A stretch of 64,000 nucleotides of DNA from Alphaproteobacteria bacterium. GTDB taxonomy: Bacteria; Pseudomonadota; Alphaproteobacteria; CACZRW01. The notes beneath the pieces were generated by a model, which was not told the origin of the DNA, ran no database searches, and was given only the letters and a program-made list of their open reading frames with translations. Location: positions 5,903-69,902 of the forward strand of contig JAFWAG010000021.1 of assembly GCA_017507765.1 (NCBI GenBank). Direction: 5' to 3'. The translations under genes were made by a program, and so were the position numbers. The stretch's first letter is position 1. Every line of letters begins with the position of its first letter. This document shows positions 233 to 61,156 of this stretch, piece by piece.

Positions 233-3200
233 TTATTCTAAGCCTTCGGTAGAGCCTGTGAACTTAACAATTCTCCCCACCTCTTCCTTTGCCTTATCAA
301 AAGCTTTCTTAGCTCGTAAAACGGCGGCTTCCGCTTGTTTGGCATCAGCAGCTTCTTCCGCCAATCTGGAAGCATTTTCGGCTTCATATCCGGCGTCGTC
401 AATTTTCTTTGCCGCATCGGAAATAATCGGCGCAAAAGGATTGGCCTTTTCCATATCCCGAGCATACTTCACAAACTTTGCCGCATCTTGAGCATATTTT
501 TTTGCGGTTGCTTTGGCGGAAATCGTCAAAACTTTAGCATAATTAGCATTGATTTTATCGATTGGTTCTTGGACTTTTTCGGTTATTCCCGCAATCAGTT
601 TAATTTCGGCATCGGTTATATTTTCTTTGCCGACGAAATCAACCAACGGAGAAAAGTCCAAGAGCATTTTTTCGGCTAACATACGGTTTTCCGCTGCAAT
701 ATTTTTGATAGAGGGAGTTATTTCTGCCATTTTTTCCGTAGTCAAAACTTTTTGATATGTATCTCCGACTTCTTTTTTCAAGGCTTCAAGTTTTTCCGTA
801 AAGTCTTGTTCTTGTTTCAAAGCTTCGGTTTCTTGGATTTTAGCTTTTTCCAAGGCCTCTTCTTTTATTTGTTCTTCTTTGGCTTTTGCTTCGCTCTGAA
901 GCTGTTTTTCAAGCTCTGTGTCTGCGAAGGTGTATATCGGTGCATCAAGGGTTCCCTTAATGATAACCGAGTAAGCCGGAATGTTTAGCATTGTATCTTC
1001 CGGCACTTTGACGGTTGTATTTAAATCAGAAGTTGTAAGGTCTAATTTAAAGGCAACAAAGGATTTTTTGTCTTTATTGTACAATAAATCCAACGGAGCC
1101 GCCGTTATTTGACCGTTATTTATATTAAATGTTCCGGTTAAGCTGTTAAACGGAGTGTTGTTGTTTTGCAAAGCCTGCCGGAAGGAAGAAAGGAATGTTG
1201 CAGATTCCTCTTCACCGTCGTCAAAAGTCTTTTGTAAAAAGTCCTGCGCTTTAGTCAAAGATAAGCCGGCTATTTCCCCGTTTGCAAAAGTAAATGTTCC
1301 TGAACCGCCCATACCGGAAACCATTTCATAAACACTGTTTCCTTTACCGGTCATACGAACTTTGAAGTCAGCCATTTCTGCGGACAAGTTAACTTTGTCT
1401 TTAGCATCAAAAAGGCTATTTACTTTTACTTTTGTGCCGTTAGCTTCCGCTGTGAACAAAGGAAAATCAGGACGCAAATCAAGCATTCCTTTAATGTTAA
1501 CCGTCCCCTCTTCTCCCATTTTTGCTTCAAGGGAAGTAAGTTCTGCAACCTTATTAAGCACTTTGATTTTTACCAGAGCGTCATTAAAGTTAGTTGTTCC
1601 GGCAACCAGAGTTTTTGCCGACAGATTAATTTGAGCCGTCAAAGTTTTCAAAAACTCGGTCAAAGCAAAAGGTTCTTTATCCCATTCCGGAGCTGTAGCC
1701 GGAAAAGCCGCCATGGTCTTGGTTGCAAAGTAATTATTTACATAGAACTTATCGGTTTCCAAAGATGCAATAAATACTTTCCGGTCATTTTTCTCTGATA
1801 TTCCGGCATTTCCGGTAATTTTATCGGCTCCGATATTCAGTTCCAATCCGGTTATTTTGGTTTGTCCTTTGGTAACGTCAAAGTTTCCGAAAAACTTAAA
1901 CTTACCCGTAATTTCCTGCGGTAGTTTATAGGAGGAGAATAAGCTGATTAAATTACGGGTTTGAGGGTGACGTATCTCAAAGGTAAACACGGCAGAAGAA
2001 GGCTTTTCTGCGGTTGCTTCTTCATAAGTTCCTTCGGCATTAAAGTAAGCTCCGGAAGTATCCCCCACCAGCTTAAATAAGATTTTTTCTTCAGAACCGT
2101 TTAAGGTGGCATCTAACAGAAGGTTAGTCATTTTTGCCGTATCAAAAGGCAAAGCTATACCCATGTCATTGATAATTTGATTAACTCGGCTAAGCTTAAG
2201 ATTTACTTCCAAGTTCTTCAATACCAATGGTTTACCTTCTTCTAGTCCAGAAACCTCTCCTTGCAGGCTTGCTGAATTACCGGCGATATTGTTCATTCTG
2301 AATTCGGTTACATTGGCAATTCCGTCTTTAATGCTACCGTTAAAGACAATTCGAGGTGAAGAAATCTGACCGTATGCAGATTCGGAAATATCAAGTTTAA
2401 TACGGGCATTATATTTATTGATAAATGGGAAAGCTTTGAAAATATCTTGTATTCCGGCGTTAATTCCTTTTTCCGAAATATTTTTGATATTGTCTTGTAT
2501 TGTAGTTTTATTCAAAGATTCCTTAATGTTTATTCCGGCTATCTGCAAATCAAGGTCAAAGTTATCTTCTTGCAAAGCCAAATCCGTTCCGATTTTTCCG
2601 TCAACGCTTATACTTCCGGCTTTGAAAACGATTTTATCCAGATAAAAAGAGTTGGGATTTAAGGCAAGTTCAGCTTTAAATGTACTGTTATCCGGCGGGA
2701 TACGGTCAGTAATTTCTGCGGGCAAAGGAAGAGCCAACCATTTAAGCAATTCTGCGGTTTTTTCTGACGATATATTAAAGTCTCCGGCAAGATTTAAGTC
2801 TTTTCCTTCCGCCGCTTTGGTTAATGTAAGGTTTCCTTGTAACAAGGAGGTTCCCGGCAGTTTAGCTTTTATATTACTGAAAGTTACGGTATTTTCCGAA
2901 GAATCAATCAGCATCGCCGTATCTTCTATGTTATCGTCATTATATTTTAATATATCGGCTTTAAGAGCAATCAAAGCGTTGTTGACAAAGGATATATTTC
3001 CTTCCGTTTCGCTTTGGCAGATATTCTTTATAAGGTCTACCCACGGCGAAAGCTCCAGATAGCTTATAATGAAATTAGCTCTAAGATTTTTATCTTCTTT
3101 GTTATTGGTTTCCGGCGCATACAAAGCAAAGGAGGCATCACCGACGGCAGAGTTTTCTCCTTGCTTTATCACAATATCGGCCAAGGAAACTTGGGTTCCC

Positions 3201-4057
3201 TGCATTTTAAGGGAAAGGTTTGCGGTAATCGGAGTTGTTAGATTGTCAGGAACTTTTACGTTCGGCATCCAAAAAGAAATAAGCTTGTCCGGATTAGCAA
3301 TATCCGCCACCACATTTCCGGCGAAAGAAAAGCTTGGGGTTGAATGAATAAGCTTTCCGCTGATAGCTATTGAAGCTCCGGTATCGGGACGAGAGAACAT
3401 AACATTTAATTCTGAAGGCTCTCTGGTATGAAGCTTATCCAAGGAAATAGCTAAACCTGTAGCTGCATCAAAAAGCTTAAACGTACCGTCAAAGCGATAA
3501 GGCCCCCGCAAAGTTTCGGCAATCATCTCTCCGTTCAGCTGTTCCAGATTATATTCAACATTCGAAGCTTTATTGGTAAAAATTATACTTCCGTCTTGAA
3601 TGGTTAGACTGTCAAAAGAAACTTCGTCCGGCATATTTCCGGCATTTGCGTCCGTACCGTTTGAGTTAAGGAAATCAAGCGTCCAGTTAACTTTTCCGTC
3701 CGGCAAGACGTCTATATAAACTTTTGGCTTGATAAGTTCAGTTCTGGTAATTCTCAGATTACCGGAAATCAAAGATTTCAAATCCAGCTCTGCGGTAATC
3801 TTTTCAATTTCCAACATATTCGGATTTGTTGTTCCGGTTACATTCGCAATTCTGGTTCTTTCGGCAGTGATAGTGGGAGACGGCATAAACTTCAAAGAAA
3901 AGTCTCCGTCAACCGACACATTTCTACCGGTCATCATTTGGAGGTTTTCGGTAAACTTTTGCTTTAATCCCTCGTCATCAACCAAAAGAGGAACGGAAAT
4001 TACTCCCCCTATTGCAACTAACACTATAATTGCCACTATAGTTAAAAGCTTTTTCAT
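233..4057 (-). CDS. AsmA-family outer-membrane biogenesis protein with a long C-terminal coiled-coil extension
   Basis: 1274-aa ORF with an N-terminal signal anchor (MKKLLTIVAIIVLVAIGGVISVPLLV). The ~1000-aa body is beta-rich, repetitive and G/N/T/S-rich, as in AsmA/TamB-like proteins. The last ~270 aa are K/E/A-rich heptad-like sequence. Confidence 0.7.
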   Translation of the reverse strand: MKKLLTIVAIIVLVAIGGVISVPLLVDDEGLKQKFTENLQMMTGRNVSVDGDFSLKFMPSPTITAERTRIANVTGTTNPNMLEIEKITAELDLKSLISGNLRITRTELIKPKVYIDVLPDGKVNWTLDFLNSNGTDANAGNMPDEVSFDSLTIQDGSIIFTNKASNVEYNLEQLNGEMIAETLRGPYRFDGTFKLFDAATGLAISLDKLHTREPSELNVMFSRPDTGASIAISGKLIHSTPSFSFAGNVVADIANPDKLISFWMPNVKVPDNLTTPITANLSLKMQGTQVSLADIVIKQGENSAVGDASFALYAPETNNKEDKNLRANFIISYLELSPWVDLIKNICQSETEGNISFVNNALIALKADILKYNDDNIEDTAMLIDSSENTVTFSNIKAKLPGTSLLQGNLTLTKAAEGKDLNLAGDFNISSEKTAELLKWLALPLPAEITDRIPPDNSTFKAELALNPNSFYLDKIVFKAGSISVDGKIGTDLALQEDNFDLDLQIAGINIKESLNKTTIQDNIKNISEKGINAGIQDIFKAFPFINKYNARIKLDISESAYGQISSPRIVFNGSIKDGIANVTEFRMNNIAGNSASLQGEVSGLEEGKPLVLKNLEVNLKLSRVNQIINDMGIALPFDTAKMTNLLLDATLNGSEEKILFKLVGDTSGAYFNAEGTYEEATAEKPSSAVFTFEIRHPQTRNLISLFSSYKLPQEITGKFKFFGNFDVTKGQTKITGLELNIGADKITGNAGISEKNDRKVFIASLETDKFYVNNYFATKTMAAFPATAPEWDKEPFALTEFLKTLTAQINLSAKTLVAGTTNFNDALVKIKVLNKVAELTSLEAKMGEEGTVNIKGMLDLRPDFPLFTAEANGTKVKVNSLFDAKDKVNLSAEMADFKVRMTGKGNSVYEMVSGMGGSGTFTFANGEIAGLSLTKAQDFLQKTFDDGEEESATFLSSFRQALQNNNTPFNSLTGTFNINNGQITAAPLDLLYNKDKKSFVAFKLDLTTSDLNTTVKVPEDTMLNIPAYSVIIKGTLDAPIYTFADTELEKQLQSEAKAKEEQIKEEALEKAKIQETEALKQEQDFTEKLEALKKEVGDTYQKVLTTEKMAEITPSIKNIAAENRMLAEKMLLDFSPLVDFVGKENITDAEIKLIAGITEKVQEPIDKINANYAKVLTISAKATAKKYAQDAAKFVKYARDMEKANPFAPIISDAAKKIDDAGYEAENASRLAEEAADAKQAEAAVLRAKKAFDKAKEEVGRIVKFTGSTEGLE

Positions 4058-18391: not shown

Positions 18392-19867
18392 CTATAAGGT
18401 TACCACTCCTTTGGAGAATAGTACCAAAGCAGAGATTGCAATCAAAATAATCGCAGTTGCCAATACTTTTTCTCCATTAGAGAATATCGGCTTTCCGTCT
18501 TTGGCTTCTTTTCTTGCCCAAACAAAGAATGGAATACCAACAGCCAAGAAAACCACCGCCATCAACAGATACGAAGGCCCTGCCGCATACAAAAGCCACA
18601 CGGCGAACAGCGAACCGACGATACCGCTGAACAAAGCATGACTGCGTTTTACGGCAAACCCGTTTGGATATTCTCCGTCCTCGCATATCTTCCACAAATA
18701 AGCCGTAGAAGTTAAATACGCAGGCAGAACCATGACGCCGGTAATGCTAAGCATTGTGTTCCAAGCATCATTAGAGAAGTAAACCAACAGCATTGCCAAC
18801 TGCATTACGGAACTGGTTACCCACAAAGATACAGCCGGAGCTTCATTTTTGTTGGTTTTAGCAAACACTTTCGGGAAAGTTCCGTTTTCTGCTGCCGCAT
18901 GAGGAATTGCAGCGGTAATCATTGTCCAAGCAAGCCAGCTTGACAATACCGCCACCAACATTCCGGCATTCATCAGCCAGCTTCCCCAAGGCCCTACCGC
19001 TCTTTCCAGAACTGCTGCCGTAGAAGGAGGAGCTGCCGCGGCAATTTCTGCCTGAGTCATAAAGCCAAACGGAAGCAAGGAAAGCAATGCATATATGCAC
19101 AAGCACCCGACAAAGCCGATTAATGTTGCTTTACTTACGGTATCTTGGCTTTTTGCTTTACCGGACATTACAACGGCGCCTTCAATACCGATGAAAGCCC
19201 ACAAGGTTACGAGCATGGTTGCTTTTACTTGTTCCGGAATACTTCCCAAATCTTTTTCTGCGCCATTAACCATATGTCCCCAGAAATCAAAAGAGAATTG
19301 ATCCAGATTGAACATAAAGATTAAAATAATGGCAAACAAGGTCAAAGCAATAAAGTTAACGGAAGTGCCGATAATATTCACAATCGTAGCTTGCCTTACC
19401 CCTTTAAGAACCAAGAAGTTAAACAGCCAGATAATTATCGAACCGCCGATAATGGAATATAGGTTATTTCCGCCTTGAAAATACGGAGGGAAGAAATAAT
19501 TTAAAGCATCCATAGTTATAACGGCATACCCGACATTTCCGAATATTTGGCATAACCAGTATCCCCAGCCGATAGTAAATCCGACATAAGGACCGAACCC
19601 TTCCCTGCTGTACATATATATACCTGCTTTCAAGTCAGGTTTTACCACGGAAAGAACTCTGAAGGTATTTGCGATAAAGTAAATACCTATACCCGTAACA
19701 ATCCACGCTATGATTATCGGACCGGCGGCCGCTACGCTTCCCATGTTTTGGGGCAAGTTATAAACTCCGCCTCCAATCATAGAACTTACTACGATTGCTG
19801 CCAGAGCAATAACTCCCAACCCCGCCGGATTGGTAGCCGTAGTGCTTTTTGCATTTTTCTGTATCAT
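18392..19867 (-). CDS. aaxC: APC-family basic amino acid antiporter (ArcD/AaxC-type arginine:agmatine or arginine:ornithine exchanger)
   Basis: 491 aa with about 13 TM helices. The N-terminal motif SSMIGGGVYNLPQNM and the GIYMYSREGFGPYVGF segment are typical of the ArcD subfamily. It lies immediately downstream of the pyruvoyl arginine decarboxylase gene. Confidence 0.8.
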   Translation of the reverse strand: MIQKNAKSTTATNPAGLGVIALAAIVVSSMIGGGVYNLPQNMGSVAAAGPIIIAWIVTGIGIYFIANTFRVLSVVKPDLKAGIYMYSREGFGPYVGFTIGWGYWLCQIFGNVGYAVITMDALNYFFPPYFQGGNNLYSIIGGSIIIWLFNFLVLKGVRQATIVNIIGTSVNFIALTLFAIILIFMFNLDQFSFDFWGHMVNGAEKDLGSIPEQVKATMLVTLWAFIGIEGAVVMSGKAKSQDTVSKATLIGFVGCLCIYALLSLLPFGFMTQAEIAAAAPPSTAAVLERAVGPWGSWLMNAGMLVAVLSSWLAWTMITAAIPHAAAENGTFPKVFAKTNKNEAPAVSLWVTSSVMQLAMLLVYFSNDAWNTMLSITGVMVLPAYLTSTAYLWKICEDGEYPNGFAVKRSHALFSGIVGSLFAVWLLYAAGPSYLLMAVVFLAVGIPFFVWARKEAKDGKPIFSNGEKVLATAIILIAISALVLFSKGVVTL

Positions 19868-19940
19868 CTGTATATGCTCCCTAAAAAGGTTATAACAGGT
19901 GCCGCAGATTATCCGCAGCTCCTGTTATAAATACTTTTGC

Positions 19941-20522
19941 TTATACTTTTACCGGCTCGGCATACTCAAAGTTCAAGAATCCGAGGCAGGTTAAGGAATA
20001 ACCAAAGTTTTGGGTAATGTTCACATAGTTATGGAAGAATTGGAAATCGCTGTGTTTTTCCACATCTCTTAACATAAGTTCATGGTTTAAAGATTTTGTA
20101 AGCCACATTTCGCAATGAGCCTTTGCAATATCATCATCAATGAAGGTATCAAAGAACTCGACATATTCGGCAGCCCAACCGCCGATAAACTTACCGTCTT
20201 TATCTTTTCCCCAACATATACCGACACCGGTAGCAATCGCTTTGTGTTCGGTTGCCGCCGCACCGTGTCCTGCCATAATTACTTCCAGCACCGCACCGTG
20301 TTTAAAGCTTTTTTCGACTTTTTCCACCGGCACGATATTGTTAAACAGTTCCGGAGGCAGAACGGAAGTATAAGGCACAACGTTAAAGTCCTGAATCTTT
20401 GCTTGCGTCAGAGCAGAGTCATAACAGAATGTTTCAAATGGCTGCGGAGGAATGCCGTCCTCTGCCAATCCTGCACCGCCGGTATGAAAAGCCAATGTCG
20501 GGTAACGAGTTCCTACAGTCAT
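19941..20522 (-). CDS. aaxB: pyruvoyl-dependent arginine decarboxylase (AaxB / PvlArgDC type)
   Basis: The ORF is open from 20612, but ATG 20522 has AAGGAG 7 nt upstream and gives a 193-aa product. [25 protein letters not shown] aligns with the archaeal PvlArgDC self-cleavage region (..NLIRISSIMPPE). A Thr52-Ser53 pair sits at the position reported for chlamydial AaxB. Confidence 0.85.
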
Positions 20523-20734
20523 AATAAATCTCCTTAAAACAGAATTAAAAACAATATTAAAGAACTGCGTACCAATGCGCCGTTCCTGCGAATAAGGATA
20601 AAAGGAAACCACCCTCGGTCAAACTAGCCATAGAGTTATAGAAATAACAAAAAGCTTTGCAAAACAAAGCATTAGGTCAAACAAACATACTTAAGTATAT
20701 GTCTGGAGCAACTAATTCCAATTGCATTAACCTC

Positions 20735-20763
20735 TTTACAATTTTAAAAGTAGTGCATAGTAT
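20735..20763 (+). promoter_or_regulatory. candidate sigma70-type promoter for the phase-variable pilin-like gene
   Basis: TTTACA (20735-20740), a 17-nt spacer, then TAGTAT (20758-20763), about 43 nt upstream of ATG 20806. Confidence 0.35.
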
Positions 20764-20805
20764 AGAATTACTTTAATGACCCATGTTTATTTAGGGTGAG
20801 CAACG

Positions 20806-22661
20806 ATGTTTTCGGAAAAAATTAAACTTTCTACCCCCCCCCGCTAGGAAATTGCGCCGCCGCCGGTAGTATTACGGTTGAAGCGATTATAGTTTTAGGG
20901 CTTATAGCCGCCTTAACACCGGTACTTTATAAGCATGTATCTGACCGTCGTCAGGATATAGACAACATCAACGAAGCGAATCGTTTTCTTTTATTAAAGA
21001 AGGCGGCATCGGAGTATATTAGCAACCACCGCCACAGTTTAAGCGTTGGTAATACCGTTCTTGAGCCTGACGATATAGGGTTAGAGCTTACGGGTTATCA
21101 AATAGGCATCAGGAAAGAATCGGACGGGACGATAAATGCGATGATTGCCGCTACTTCTGGCGGCAATGATTTAAAAGCGGCGAAGGTTGCTTCATTATTG
21201 GGCGTTTCTGCGGGGATATATTCGGCTCAGGATAGCAGTAAAGCATGGGGTATCAAGGGAGTTTGGGCAGAGAACATAGCGAACTATGGTTTTACGAGTT
21301 TGCCGACTGGCATTACGGTTTTGACGACTGCATATAAGGAAGAAACCACCGGCGGGATTAACGAAGAACAGTTAAAAGAAATCATTGAGAGCACGTCTTA
21401 TGACACGTTAACGACCAAGAAGTTTTGCCTAGACAATCCGAATATACCGGAAGATGAACGGTGCGTAGAAGATTGGGATTTAGCCGTCATCAATCCGGTT
21501 GAGATTATTGACGGCTGTAATTCCGGCACGCAAAGTGCGTGTCAGAAGGGTTGGGAAAAGAATATCAATCGCAGTTGTGAGCAGATATCCCAAAGATATA
21601 AAAAGATAGGCTTTGCCGCCACTTCGGGGATATACAAAATCACCACCGGCGCAACTACCCAAGTTGAGAAAGCCTGTTACTTTGTGAATGGAGACCTCCC
21701 AACTAATGCTCAGTTAATCGAAGCGGCAAAAAGTAATGACATCGCTCGCAGATACGACTGGGAAAATAATAAGATTACGGCAAGCTGTACTTCTATCATC
21801 ACGAACTGGAACTCTGCCCCAAGCGGACTTTATACTCATGTAAGCGGAACAAGTACTTACAGTGGGTCTCAGCCATGCTTGTTTGTGGGCAGCCGACTTG
21901 CCAACAATAACGAGACTATCACGCAGTGTAACAGCGGAGGCGGAAGCAGTGTTGCTTGCCGCTACGGCTGGAAGTTTGATGTTAATCGTTCCTGCGCAAG
22001 GGTGATTGCCACATGGACGAGCGCACCGACAGGTTGGTATCAGATTACAACTTCTTCATCATCGAGTTCCGCCCCGTGTGTCTTTACGGGTAACCGTGTT
22101 GCCACCGCCGCAGAAGTCGTTGCTCAATGCAATTGGTCAACCACCAGCAGTGCCATGGCGAGCAGCGTCCAATGCCGTTACGGCTACCTCAAAGGCTATA
22201 ACACCAGTTGTACTAATGTCATCAACAACTACGCCGCCGGCAAAGGCATAGAAAACAGCATCGTATCTGCTAGTGGCGGCTGGCGCGAATGCTGCGATTG
22301 TTGTAAGACTTGTGCAAACATAGGTACAGTAAGCGGAGGCGAATGCAAGAATGTAAATGGTTGTGCTTGGGTACGGTCTACGTCAACTAAGAATTATTGG
22401 GATTCACAGACGTTCTGCAGTAATTTAGGCATGGAGTTAAAGTCCAAATCTCAATTACAAGCTGCCGGATTATGGAATATAGGTTCAAATCCGTTCAGCG
22501 TACCTAGATGGCATTGGACCACGGATGTTTGGAGTGGCAACTCAAGTTGGGGAGCCCACGTTTGGCTCGGTAATAGCAGTGTTAGCCATTGCCCGAGAAG
22601 CAATGCAGGTTGGTACGAGGGCTACCAGATCAACATCTACGCATTGTGTGGGCTAAAGTAG
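20806..22661 (+). CDS. prepilin-leader, Cys-rich-repeat, lectin-like surface protein; frameshifted at a poly-C tract (phase-OFF as sequenced)
   Basis: ATG 20806 reads MFSEKIKLSTPPR and then stops at TAG 20845. The adjacent frame is open from 20826 to 22661 and encodes ..AAAG|SITVEAIIVLGLIAALTPVLYKHV.., co-linear with the 611-aa paralogue at 59321. One extra C would restore a 618-codon ORF. The ORF track reports only the 506-aa part from internal Met 21141. Confidence 0.8.
20834..20842 (+). repeat. C9 homopolymeric tract (candidate slipped-strand mispairing site)
   Basis: Nine consecutive C counted directly at 20834-20842, inside the leader-peptide codons. It sets the reading-frame relationship between ATG 20806 and the long downstream ORF. 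Confidence 0.9.
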
Positions 22662-59143: not shown

Positions 59144-59320
59144 GAAGTCTCTTAATAACCAAAGGTTCCATCTTGGATAGACCTCTCCTTGCTTTGTGTC
59201 TGGGAGACAGAGTTATGTCCAGATGCCAAAGCATTAAAAACTTTGTACCGAGTTATTACGGTCTTCTAACTCCCAGGCAAGTGTAGCGCAAAGCCTTGAT
59301 TCTTTATTGGGAGAAAGCAG

Positions 59321-61156
59321 ATGAACCGTACTCAAAAAGGCAGCATTTCCGTTGAAGCAATTGTTATGTTAGGGATTATAGCTTCCCTGACGCCCATACT
59401 TTATAAGCACGTTGCCGACCGCCGCGAAGATATGGATAATATAACCGAAGCAAACACTCTGCTTTTGTTAAAGAACGCCGCCGCAGAATATATCGAAGCG
59501 AACAAAGACACCTTAAGCGTAGGTACAGTTCTTTTTGAGCCAACCGACATCGGTATAGACATATCCGGCTATCAAATCGGGATAAAGAAGGAAGTAAACG
59601 GCACCATAAACGCCATGATAGCCTCCACAAGCGGCAATAATGATATGAAAGCGGCAAAGGTTGCTTCGTTACTTGGCGTATCAGCGGGAATATATTCGGC
59701 ACAGGATAGTAGCAAAGCATGGGGTATCAACGGTATCTGGGCAGAAAATATCTCAAGCTATGGCTTTACGTCTCTGCCGACCGGCGTTCCGGTTGTAACC
59801 ACGGCTTACGACAAAGAAGAAAGCTTTGGAATTAATGAAGAAGAATTAAAAAACATTCTGGAAAATACAAGCTATGATTCTTTAACGGCGAAAAAGCTTT
59901 GTATTGATAATCCGGAAATACCGGAAGATGAAAGATGCATCGAAGATTGGAACATTATCGGCATCAATCCGTTGGAAATTATTGCTGGCTGTAATTCCGG
60001 CATTCAATCTGCCTGTGAAAAAGGCTGGTTAAAAAATATCAATCGTTCCTGCTTGGAAATATCCATAAAGTATAAAGGAGCCGGCTTTATGGCTCCTTCG
60101 GACATATACAAGCTGACGACTTCCCGTAATACCCAAGTTGAAAGAGCCTGCTACTTCGTAAACGGGGAACTTCCAACTAACGAGCAGTTAATTGAAGCCG
60201 TAAAAACCGATGCTATAGCCCGCCGCTATGATTGGGAAAACCATAAAATATCTGCTTCCTGTCAAAACATAATCACAAACTGGCCGGAAGCTACAACGGA
60301 CTTTTATACTCTTGTAACCGGCATTTCCACCTACCAAGCGAACCAACCATGCGTATTTACCGGAAGCAGAGTAGCCACAAACGGAGAAGTCATAACCCAA
60401 TGCAACAGCGCAATAGGAACCGGAGCCGCTTGCCGTTATGGGTGGATTAACAACCTTAATCGTTCATGTGAAAGAGTAATTGCGTCTAACACTTCTGCCC
60501 CTTCCGGCTATTACAATATCACGACGTCCTCCGGAGCAAGCAGCCAGCCCTGTTTCTTTGTAAACCACAGAGTTGCAACCGGACAAGAAACCATAGTTGC
60601 CTGCAATGCTTCCACTACAAGCGCAGCTATGAATAGCAATATTTCCTGCCGTTTTGGGTATGTAAGAGAATATAACAACAACTGCGCAAACATACTTGGA
60701 AACTATCCTGCCGGTATCGAACAAACGCACAGCATAACCACCTCAAATGGCGGAACCCGCAAATTATGTTTAATGTCCTGCGAGGTAATAGGCTCTGTTA
60801 CCGACGGAGAATGCAAAGATGTTAACGGCTGGGGCTGGGTACGGACAAGCACTGCGCTTAACTATTGGGATTCCATAGACTTTTGCAATGCTTTAAATAT
60901 GGCATTAAAGACACCGGCACAATTACAAAGCGACGGCTTATGGAATCCCGGATACAGTAACCCGTTTGCAAATTATTGGGTATGGACAACAAATACTTGC
61001 ACTTGCGGACAATGGAGTAGCACCTTTAGTAACGATTGCGGCTGTCAAGCCTATCTTGGAACCGGAGTTTTAGGCTGGAACCACAGAGAATCCGTATATG
61101 ACGGAGATTGGACAGTCAGTTACGGCTGGGTATACGCCCTCTGCGGCCCGAAGTAG
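59321..61156 (+). CDS. prepilin-leader, Cys-rich-repeat, lectin-like surface protein (intact paralogue)
   Basis: 611 aa. The leader MNRTQKG|SISVEAIVMLGIIASLTPILY has Glu at +5 and about 21 hydrophobic residues, as in type IV pilin / Tad pseudopilin class III signals. There are 24 Cys in total. Four ~67-aa 4-Cys modules span aa 224-497. The C-terminal ~110 aa carry W..s..FC..L...L....QL and a terminal YALCG. Confidence 0.8.
   Translation: MNRTQKGSISVEAIVMLGIIASLTPILYKHVADRREDMDNITEANTLLLLKNAAAEYIEANKDTLSVGTVLFEPTDIGIDISGYQIGIKKEVNGTINAMIASTSGNNDMKAAKVASLLGVSAGIYSAQDSSKAWGINGIWAENISSYGFTSLPTGVPVVTTAYDKEESFGINEEELKNILENTSYDSLTAKKLCIDNPEIPEDERCIEDWNIIGINPLEIIAGCNSGIQSACEKGWLKNINRSCLEISIKYKGAGFMAPSDIYKLTTSRNTQVERACYFVNGELPTNEQLIEAVKTDAIARRYDWENHKISASCQNIITNWPEATTDFYTLVTGISTYQANQPCVFTGSRVATNGEVITQCNSAIGTGAACRYGWINNLNRSCERVIASNTSAPSGYYNITTSSGASSQPCFFVNHRVATGQETIVACNASTTSAAMNSNISCRFGYVREYNNNCANILGNYPAGIEQTHSITTSNGGTRKLCLMSCEVIGSVTDGECKDVNGWGWVRTSTALNYWDSIDFCNALNMALKTPAQLQSDGLWNPGYSNPFANYWVWTTNTCTCGQWSSTFSNDCGCQAYLGTGVLGWNHRESVYDGDWTVSYGWVYALCGPK

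Follow-up and report, generated by a model that had tools for sequence, protein, structure and literature searches.

A poly-C tract in leader codons as a probable slipped-strand switch in a family of pilin-like genes from uncultured Alphaproteobacteria

Analysis of a 64,000-nucleotide (nt) stretch of an alphaproteobacterial metagenome-assembled genome (MAG; assembly GCA_017507765.1, contig JAFWAG010000021.1, positions 5,903 to 69,902; hereafter the window, with coordinates counted from its first letter) pointed to a run of nine C residues (C9) at 20834-20842 as a likely contingency element: the tract probably acts as the length-variable part of a simple-sequence contingency locus, switching a gene for a predicted pilin-like protein ON and OFF by slipped-strand mispairing. 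The host is an uncultured, probably gut-associated alphaproteobacterium. An earlier note on the same DNA had proposed such a switch in the leader codons, and the proposal is supported by tracts of C7 to C11 in homologues, by a homologous locus with C10 (L011), and by a pair of orthologous loci that differ in tract length (L007 and L010).

As sequenced, the ATG frame of the gene and the long frame that encodes the body of the protein are not joined. The sequence confirmed every coordinate given for this arrangement in the earlier note, namely, the start codon, the tract, the first stop codon, and the frame that stays open to 22661, as well as the ribosome-binding site (RBS)-like element upstream from the start. 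The parts of the gene are as follows.

20735-20763, + strand: sigma-70-like promoter TTTACA-N17-TAGTAT, located by consensus scan, about 43 nt upstream from ATG 20806
20793-20800, + strand: Shine-Dalgarno-like sequence AGGGTGAG, with a 5-nt spacer to ATG 20806
20806-20808, + strand: ATG start, read directly from the sequence
20806-20847, + strand: leader open reading frame (ORF) as sequenced (OFF), which reads MFSEKIKLSTPPR and then stops
20826-22661, + strand: open frame of the body, 611 amino acids (aa) plus stop (612 codons), with a translation reading ..LGNCAAAGSITVEAIIVLGLIAALTPVLYKHV..
20834-20842, + strand: run of nine C, proposed as the element of slipped-strand switching (ON expected at C10 or C7)
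20845-20847, + strand: TAG at which the ATG frame stops when the tract is C9, within a conserved GCTAG after the tract
20867-20869, + strand: TAG at which the ATG frame stops when the tract is C8 (second OFF frame)
21141-22661, + strand: ORF of 506 aa from ATG 21141, the sole ORF listed there, which lacks the leader and the hydrophobic helix

The C9 tract begins 28 nt into the ORF that starts at ATG 20806, at the junction of the two frames within a leader of about 60 nt, and the body frame meets this ATG only at a tract length of C10 or C7. Insertion of one C gives a single ORF of 618 aa, as had been predicted, in which a 21-residue leader (MFSEKIKLSTPPPLGNCAAAG) is fused to the body; with C8, translation runs into the TAG at 20867-20869, again in agreement with the earlier reading. 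The counterpart of this second stop in relatives is the TAG of GCT AGA AAA TAG, and GCTAG(A/G)AAAT follows the tract in five of six aligned copies (four exactly and L012 with one mismatch, GTTAG; not in L001). AAGGAG stands at the matching Shine-Dalgarno position in other family copies, and the promoter block CTTTACAnTTTT..GTGCATAGTAT is kept in three other tract-bearing copies (L055, L056a, and L056b); the segment at 20735-20763 presumably acts as the promoter of the poly-C gene.

The body frame contains no ATG, GTG, or TTG between 20826 and 21141, and an OFF cell would therefore be unable to make the N-terminal domain; the stretch encoded upstream from Met 21141 includes ..YKHVSDRRQDIDNINEANR... 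The 506-aa ORF, which the earlier note had singled out as the only one in a six-frame list, is 100% identical to the NCBI protein IKD08_01980 (P0008, "hypothetical protein"). This database entry is an annotation artifact of the OFF state, starting at an internal Met because of the frameshift at C9.

The window holds a second, intact member of the family.

59321-61156, + strand: short-leader paralogue of 611 aa without a tract, beginning MNRTQKG^SISVE.. (the caret marks the predicted processing site)

The body frame of the poly-C gene is colinear with this paralogue, as had been noted, with 60% identity from end to end over 609 aa. Searches with the 59321 paralogue as the query retrieved 83 homologues, all of them "hypothetical proteins" from MAGs or metagenomes, and DNA for homologous loci was taken from GTDB species genomes, JGI metagenomes, and ENA assemblies. 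These loci yielded 14 further poly-C tracts (C7 to C11), each at the matching place in the leader, from at least three other MAGs and several metagenomes. With the window gene counted, 12 full-length genes are OFF, 2 are ON (C10 and C11), and 1 tract lies in frame in a 51-aa remnant. The 14 tracts are listed with their states and, for OFF alleles, the lengths that would give ON.

L001: C9, OFF, ON lengths 8 / 11
L007: C9, OFF, ON lengths 8 / 11
L010: C11, ON
L011: C10, ON
L012: C9, OFF, ON lengths 7 / 10
L013: C8, OFF, ON lengths 7 / 10
L014: C8, OFF, ON lengths 7 / 10
L054: C9, OFF, ON lengths 7 / 10
L055: C9, OFF, ON lengths 7 / 10
L056a: C9, OFF, ON lengths 7 / 10
L056b: C9, OFF, ON lengths 7 / 10
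L022: C7, OFF, ON lengths 6 / 9
L057: C7, OFF, ON lengths 5 / 8
L013b (51-aa remnant): C8, in frame

The tract is kept in many homologues, and its length differs among relatives both in and out of frame. Its surroundings form a cassette common to homologues, ..AAAATGAAAGTYTCTA-Cn-GCTAGAAAATAG.. (longer downstream flank, GCTAGAAAATAGCGTCC), in which C7, C8, C9, C10, and C11 are all present; the version in the window reads ..AAAATTAAACTTTCTA-C9-GCTAGGAAATTGCGCC.., and across paralogues the same cassette bears C8, C9, and C10. The loci with tracts span two subfamilies that are 44 to 47% identical in the N-terminal domain. A distant rumen subfamily made up nearly all of what the metagenome scan found; most of its copies have long leaders without a tract, and a tract is present only in L022 (C7).

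Two sets of alleles bear directly on switching. The leader of L011 is close to that of the window gene and reads TCTA-C10-GCTAGAAAAT, in frame (MLLKKMKVSTPPPLENSVQSG^SITVE), against TCTA-C9-GCTAGGAAAT in the window, and the ON length predicted from the window sequence is in this way realized in a relative. The orthologues L007 (rumen MAG RUG12900) and L010 (ENA ERZ1039151) are identical in the 72-nt leader and in the downstream flank and differ in the tract, which is C9 (OFF) in the former and C11 (ON) in the latter; over 213 codons of the body, the proportions of nonsynonymous (pN) and synonymous (pS) differences between them were 0.004 and 0.028, respectively. An in-frame leader of the same type (..KLKVSTPPPQQ..) occurs in P0041 (IKD08_00695), from the window's own MAG. 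Seven homologues that had been called from an internal Met were tested (P0021, P0031, P0034, P0039, P0045, P0048, and P0050), and all seven proved to be OFF alleles.

The leader flank appears to be better kept than the genes that it precedes. In seven pairs of loci, none of them including the window, identity over the 30 nt that precede the tract was 87 to 100% for six (L013/L014, 77%), whereas the bodies were 68 to 78% identical in the five of those seven pairs that have full-length bodies, which suggests selection on the cassette or exchange between copies. Directly downstream from the full-length OFF copy in L013, at 3068-3223, lies an orphan 51-aa remnant with a leader, an in-frame C8, and a degenerate hydrophobic helix without Glu5 (MSPKKMKLSTPPAKNSVNSESITVITFGL..), which may be read as evidence that cassettes duplicate and decay. 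L056 carries two family genes in tandem (119-1896 and 1966-2208), each with its own promoter-leader cassette and C9 tract, both OFF. In L033 (about 911-1010; rumen subfamily), the leader is the same as in L007 and L010, the tract is interrupted (CCCTCCCCC) and has no homopolymer, and the A run after the ATG is A7 rather than A6, so that the frame is broken there too; this may be a locked allele that has a second slippery run, or the assembly may be in error.

The orphan remnant beside L013 and the interrupted tract of L033 with its frame-breaking A7/A6 difference fit the idea that the window gene is a young pseudogene, in which a one-off frameshift has struck a redundant paralogue that is heading to decay, all the more as a family of at least 15 copies makes single copies dispensable. 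We consider this explanation the most improbable of those weighed here. The 611-codon body is free of stops, aligns end to end with the paralogue, and keeps the Cys pattern; the promoter, RBS, and leader are conserved; and the same hypermutable tract is out of frame in other loci (11 in the list above), with intact bodies wherever these were measured (598 codons in the window gene and 668 to 751 codons in L012 to L014; over OFF copies as a whole, 480 to 750 codons). The L007/L010 locus, OFF in one assembly and ON in another, likewise argues against one-off decay. Between copies, the ratio of nonsynonymous to synonymous substitution rates (dN/dS) was 0.09 to 0.3, with dS saturated for most pairs; for the window gene and the 59321 paralogue it was 0.09, with dS saturated.

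The correction that OFF alleles need varies, being +1 nt, +2 nt, or -1 nt, as stochastic slippage of DNA predicts and as neither a fixed recoding signal nor a systematic one-base miscall does. A miscall would mean that the gene is intact with a stable C10 and that C9 is a homopolymer error in a short-read MAG. The window does derive from a MAG with IKD08 locus tags, sequencing is known to be weak at long G/C homopolymers, and C9 is the commonest length among the collected loci, most of these C9 alleles lacking a single base for ON. The shortfall is not uniform among OFF loci, however: L001 and L007 (C9) need C8 or C11, L013 and L014 (C8) need C7 or C10, L022 (C7) needs C6 or C9, and L057 (C7) needs C5 or C8. 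In-frame C10 and C11 tracts came from independent assemblers and samples, and longer tracts can therefore be assembled; moreover, all seven of the leaderless protein calls tested, from different projects, have out-of-frame tracts. An artifact of assembly or sequencing is thus very unlikely to account for the locus.

Programmed recoding, to which we give a small probability, would make C9 itself functional: ribosomes would shift to the -1 frame on C_CCC_CCC, or the RNA polymerase would slip on the C run, and full-length protein would be made at a set, low level with no heritable switch. In the zero frame, AC[C CCC CCC] CGC TAG does form a perfect X_XXY_YYZ heptamer, a -1 shift there gives exactly the C10 product (..STPPPLGN..), and C9 is the commonest length, with OFF alleles over-represented. 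Against this, there is no stimulatory structure, the 90 nt downstream folding no better than shuffled sequences (z = +0.61); the shift is not conserved, C9 alleles calling for +1 in L001 and L007 but for -1 in other loci, and C8 and C7 alleles for still other shifts; and in-frame C10 and C11 alleles exist. Transcriptional slippage, for its part, is best documented for A/T runs. Some leaky decoding may well occur alongside switching at the DNA level; an example sequence for a locked C9 allele is CCACCGCCC.

The C9 tract is the only run of seven or more C or G residues in the window and lies in one of only two family genes there. It is long enough to be hypermutable, as G/C runs of about 7 to 9 or more are. 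Dinucleotide-preserving shuffles of the window contained a mean of 0.40 C9/G9 runs, with at least one in 28 of 100 shuffles, and the weight of the tract lies in where it sits and in how often it recurs. The 152 kb of homologue loci that were fetched contained 17 C/G runs of at least 7, of which 14 were family leader tracts at the matching position; with the window included (about 216 kb), leader tracts made up 15 of 18. No other noteworthy simple-sequence repeats were found in the window. The G+C content is about 43% overall (38 to 46% per 2-kb window), so the earlier description of the genome as AT-rich does not hold; it is not particularly so.

Several points weigh against a slipped-strand switch at this locus. 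A lone C9 in 64 kb is not improbable from composition. All sequences are metagenome assemblies, in which homopolymers are consensus calls; a protein database search for an orthologue of the window gene matched only P0008, and heterogeneity at 20834-20842 itself is unproven. Switching in the family is proposed from sequence comparison, and we infer both its reversibility and its rate. OFF alleles are also over-represented: of the 83 homologues, about 18 were called without a leader and roughly 3 are ON (binomial P of 0.046 for an expected one-third ON), and the commonest tract length is C9. This excess could reflect selection for OFF in vivo, a bias toward contraction, or a technical or assembly bias against longer tracts, and low-level recoding of C9 could be a further cause.

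With these points set against the evidence above, we still regard a slipped-strand switch as the likely function of the tract. In the mechanism that we propose, the gene would be transcribed from its own conserved promoter at any tract length, constitutively or under independent regulation, and translation from ATG 20806 would reach the body only at C7, C10, or C13. At C9 or C8, translation would end at a TAG 1 to 9 codons on, so that the N-terminal part of the protein could not be made. Slipped-strand mispairing at replication would add or remove C residues, and a clonal population would therefore always mix ON and OFF cells. As the C tract would be read as proline codons, and the leader to which these belong is presumably cleaved away, changes in tract length would leave the mature protein unaltered.

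The family to which the gene belongs is large. IKD08 locus tags mark 14 of the clusters of homologues, which together with the 59321 copy gives at least 15 paralogues in the window's MAG, instead of the 2, resembling pilC1/pilC2, that the earlier note had envisaged. By their N termini, the proteins fall into those with short leaders of the form MNRTQKG^S(I/L)(S/T)VE; those with long leaders containing ..K(V/L)STPPP.. (P0036, P0041, and P0066); and about 18 that begin at an internal Met just past the leader (MLGLIAALTP.., MVEVIV..) or further in. About one-fifth of the family's database entries are apparently shortened to an internal Met, like IKD08_01980, and about half of the paralogues in the window's MAG have no called leader. 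The tract states of the other copies in this MAG were judged from protein N termini only; on that basis, about half of the 15 or more paralogues would bear the promoter-leader-poly-C cassette. P0042 (IKD08_04015, window's MAG) and P0039 (L054, ENA ERZ28594176) share about 99% identity through their first 375 aa, beyond which the C-terminal domain differs sharply, a mosaic that points to the swapping of tip domains among strains or paralogues by recombination. Each of the two proteins was called from an internal Met, and an OFF tract was confirmed in DNA for L054 only.

Genes of the short-leader class carry a different conserved feature upstream from the start codon, in the 5' untranslated region (5'UTR).

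59198-59286, + strand: conserved 5'UTR element of the short-leader class, with outer stem CTGGGAG/CTCCCAG
L002 2897-2966, L003 2881-2956, and L005 2879-2940: the same element in relatives

The element spans about 60 to 90 nt and lies 26 to 45 nt upstream from the ATG in three of the four short-leader genes with upstream DNA; no distance was taken for L002, whose nearest downstream ATGs do not lie in frame. The outer stem CTGGGAG/CTCCCAG is invariant, and in an inner stem and a hairpin, 6 of 19 pairs have changed in a compensatory way. The element is absent upstream from genes of the poly-C class, and a search of Rfam gave no family at the gathering score. A weak match of the window copy to sRNA-Xcc1 was not reproduced in three other copies and was rejected as chance. 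These features make the element a candidate cis-regulatory RNA. The 59321 copy, which the earlier note took to be constitutive, is not demonstrably so, and it bears this conserved, apparently structured element.

The neighbors of the poly-C gene are a pyruvoyl-dependent arginine decarboxylase and an amino-acid permease immediately upstream (divergent, 18392-20612, - strand) and mfd on the other, that is, housekeeping surroundings. The pairing of an arginine decarboxylase with a permease is typical of arginine/agmatine acid-resistance modules.

The encoded protein is probably a pilin-like modular protein with a lectin-type tip domain, as judged from its N terminus and from structural models. 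Its predicted parts are as follows.

20865-20882, + strand: G^SITVE, a predicted prepilin-type processing motif with Gly at -1 and Glu at +5, ahead of a hydrophobic stretch of about 20 residues
20871-21335, + strand: N-terminal domain, a predicted pilin-like "lollipop" with a 52-residue helix (residues 16-67) on a beta-sheet (residues 75-170)
21498-22235, + strand: Cys-rich repeated modules, about residues 225-470, whose copy number and composition differ between members
22308-22658, + strand: C-terminal domain, about residues 495-611, likely a C-type-lectin-like or Link-like binding module

The N terminus of the window protein (..AAAG^SITVEAIIVLGLIAALTPVLY), like that of the paralogue (MNRTQKG^SISVEAIVMLGIIASLTPILY), resembles a class III (prepilin) signal, with a basic leader that ends in Gly, a Glu at +5, and about 20 hydrophobic residues. 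G14 (Gly -1) and E19 (Glu +5) are invariant in 37 homologues; the residue at +1 is Ser or Gly in the family, which is atypical for a class III signal. By analogy, the leader would be cleaved after the Gly. AlphaFold2 gave models of this protein (predicted local distance difference test score, 84.7 for the whole model and 84.5 for a second model that includes the N-domain), and the whole model has four parts: an N-terminal helix, a beta-sheet domain, the Cys-rich repeats, and a C-terminal beta-rich domain. The Cys-rich modules appear in the model as a helix-strand-strand-helix repeat, and the alignment shows conserved Cys columns.

Foldseek searches of the PDB with the N-domain alone gave 3eoi, a putative PilM of E. 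coli B7A, as the best match (E of 0.011, probability of 0.99) and recovered no pilin structure. With the whole model, all matches were to C-type-lectin-like or Link folds, including 8oks (the C-terminal part of Bd2740; E of 1e-3), LYVE-1 (8os2), and NK receptors; these matches are weak (E of 1e-3 to 1e-2, target-normalized template-modeling scores of 0.50 to 0.56) and would presumably fall on the C-terminal domain. At the sequence level, phmmer and profile searches of Pfam, NCBIfam, and the PDB found nothing significant for the family. The poly-C protein did not match the N_methyl and TadE models of Pfam at E values up to 1, its C-terminal 123 aa had no Pfam match, and the Pfam family Neisseria_PilC (PilC/PilY1) was not matched either, the AlphaFold2 model being without a propeller. 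Pfam Xlink scored below threshold in the 59321 paralogue only (25.1 bits; cutoff, 27), and the sole pilin hint in NCBIfam was ComGE (E of 0.16, 12 bits; cutoff, 49). These two, together with GGGWT, subtilase cytotoxin B subunit, and ANATO, were discarded as noise for their weak scores. No pilus operon, prepilin peptidase, or type IV filament assembly genes were found in the 64-kb window. As to the earlier description as a pilin-like adhesin, the sequence searches of Pfam and the PDB bring no match to either name; membership in the type IV pilin family is unproven, and we infer incorporation into a pilus and a function as an adhesin or lectin.

Phase-variable genes of Neisseria offer the closest comparisons. 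The tract of pilC lies in the signal-peptide region, and the repeat of opa lies in leader-peptide codons. The pilC tract, G(9-20), and the opa repeat, CTTCT(7-21), are both genic, and a gonococcal genome has 11 to 12 opa copies (PMC5953494). Like pilC1/pilC2, the gene described here has a G/C homopolymer, about 9 or more residues long, near the 5' end of the coding sequence, in a part that the mature protein would lack, with frameshift ON/OFF states and more than one paralogue, and the pilC product is pilus associated and adhesive. Unlike the proteins here, PilC belongs to the PilY1 family, carries an ordinary Sec signal peptide, and is not pilin-like; there are two copies of pilC in Neisseria, against at least 15 paralogues in the window's MAG, and its host is a betaproteobacterial pathogen, whereas the host here is an uncultured alphaproteobacterium that is probably gut associated. 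Because of this number of paralogues, opa is the closer analogue. It too is a multicopy family of single genes scattered round the chromosome, with a repeat in the leader codons of each copy; copies would switch independently, so that most would be OFF at any time, and the exposed part varies in a mosaic fashion (here, P0042 versus P0039). The opa repeat unit is a pentamer, however, and the tract here a homopolymer; Opa proteins are small beta-barrel outer-membrane proteins rather than pilin-like modular ones; and only about half of the family here has the tract, the rest having a short leader and a structured 5'UTR.

Large minor pilins of the type IVb class include CofB and TcpB. Modular type IV pilins have been described in Streptococcus sanguinis (PilB and PilC; PMC8179133, PMC9934059). 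The protein here resembles modular pilins in that a predicted N-terminal pilin-like module (class III-type leader, Glu5, and a long alpha-1 helix with a sheet) would bear C-terminal binding modules; the modules grafted onto modular pilins include lectin-type ones and are expected at the tip or surface of the pilus. It differs from them in having no detectable sequence similarity and no pilin among its fold matches, in its Ser at +1 (Phe or Met in modular pilins), and in the lack of pilus machinery nearby in the window. To our knowledge, modular pilins are not switched by simple-sequence repeats. The C-terminal domain of the Bdellovibrio fiber protein Bd2740 is the structure 8oks (PMC10769870). 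This domain and LYVE-1 8os2 are the best, though weak, structural matches and would fit a ligand-recognizing tip on a multiparalogue family with swapped C termini; Bd2740 is a trimeric fiber protein, whereas the protein here is pilin-like.

Homopolymer contingency loci are textbook knowledge in cultured pathogens such as Neisseria, Haemophilus, Campylobacter, and Helicobacter. We know of hardly any description of them in Alphaproteobacteria or in uncultured gut or rumen bacteria, and a full-text literature search found nothing relevant on such loci in these groups. The mechanism is thus a familiar one; what is new is the protein family, the cassette conserved in it, and the lineage. As about half of the 15 or more paralogues would bear this cassette, a population could display varying subsets of pilin-like, lectin-tipped proteins. 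It is possible, if rather less probable than the switch itself, that the locus is an element of opa-like combinatorial surface variation in uncultured Alphaproteobacteria, probably of the gut or rumen, with at least 15 scattered genes per genome, exchangeable lectin-type tips, and two regulatory classes. One class may consist of genes behind the conserved promoter-leader-poly-C cassette, mostly OFF in consensus sequences and with a cassette better conserved than the bodies, and the other of short-leader genes behind a conserved structured 5'UTR RNA outside Rfam. If so, this would be the first simple-sequence "phasome" recognized from MAGs of uncultured Alphaproteobacteria, together with a new pilin-adhesin family and a new cis-regulatory RNA.

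If the slipped-strand reading is correct, the family, with no sequence match in Pfam, NCBIfam, or the PDB, is a new candidate class of modular pilins, and about one-fifth of its entries are artifacts that start at an internal Met, so that gene catalogues undercount and misdescribe it. A lineage represented only by MAGs would then use stochastic ON/OFF switching of a large pilin-like, lectin-tipped family, which would imply that selection at the cell surface is strong and fluctuating, exerted by host immunity, by phage, or by shifts in the glycans or partner cells that are targeted. Raw metagenomic reads, through the tract lengths in them, would also show directly and without culture which adhesins are expressed in a natural population.

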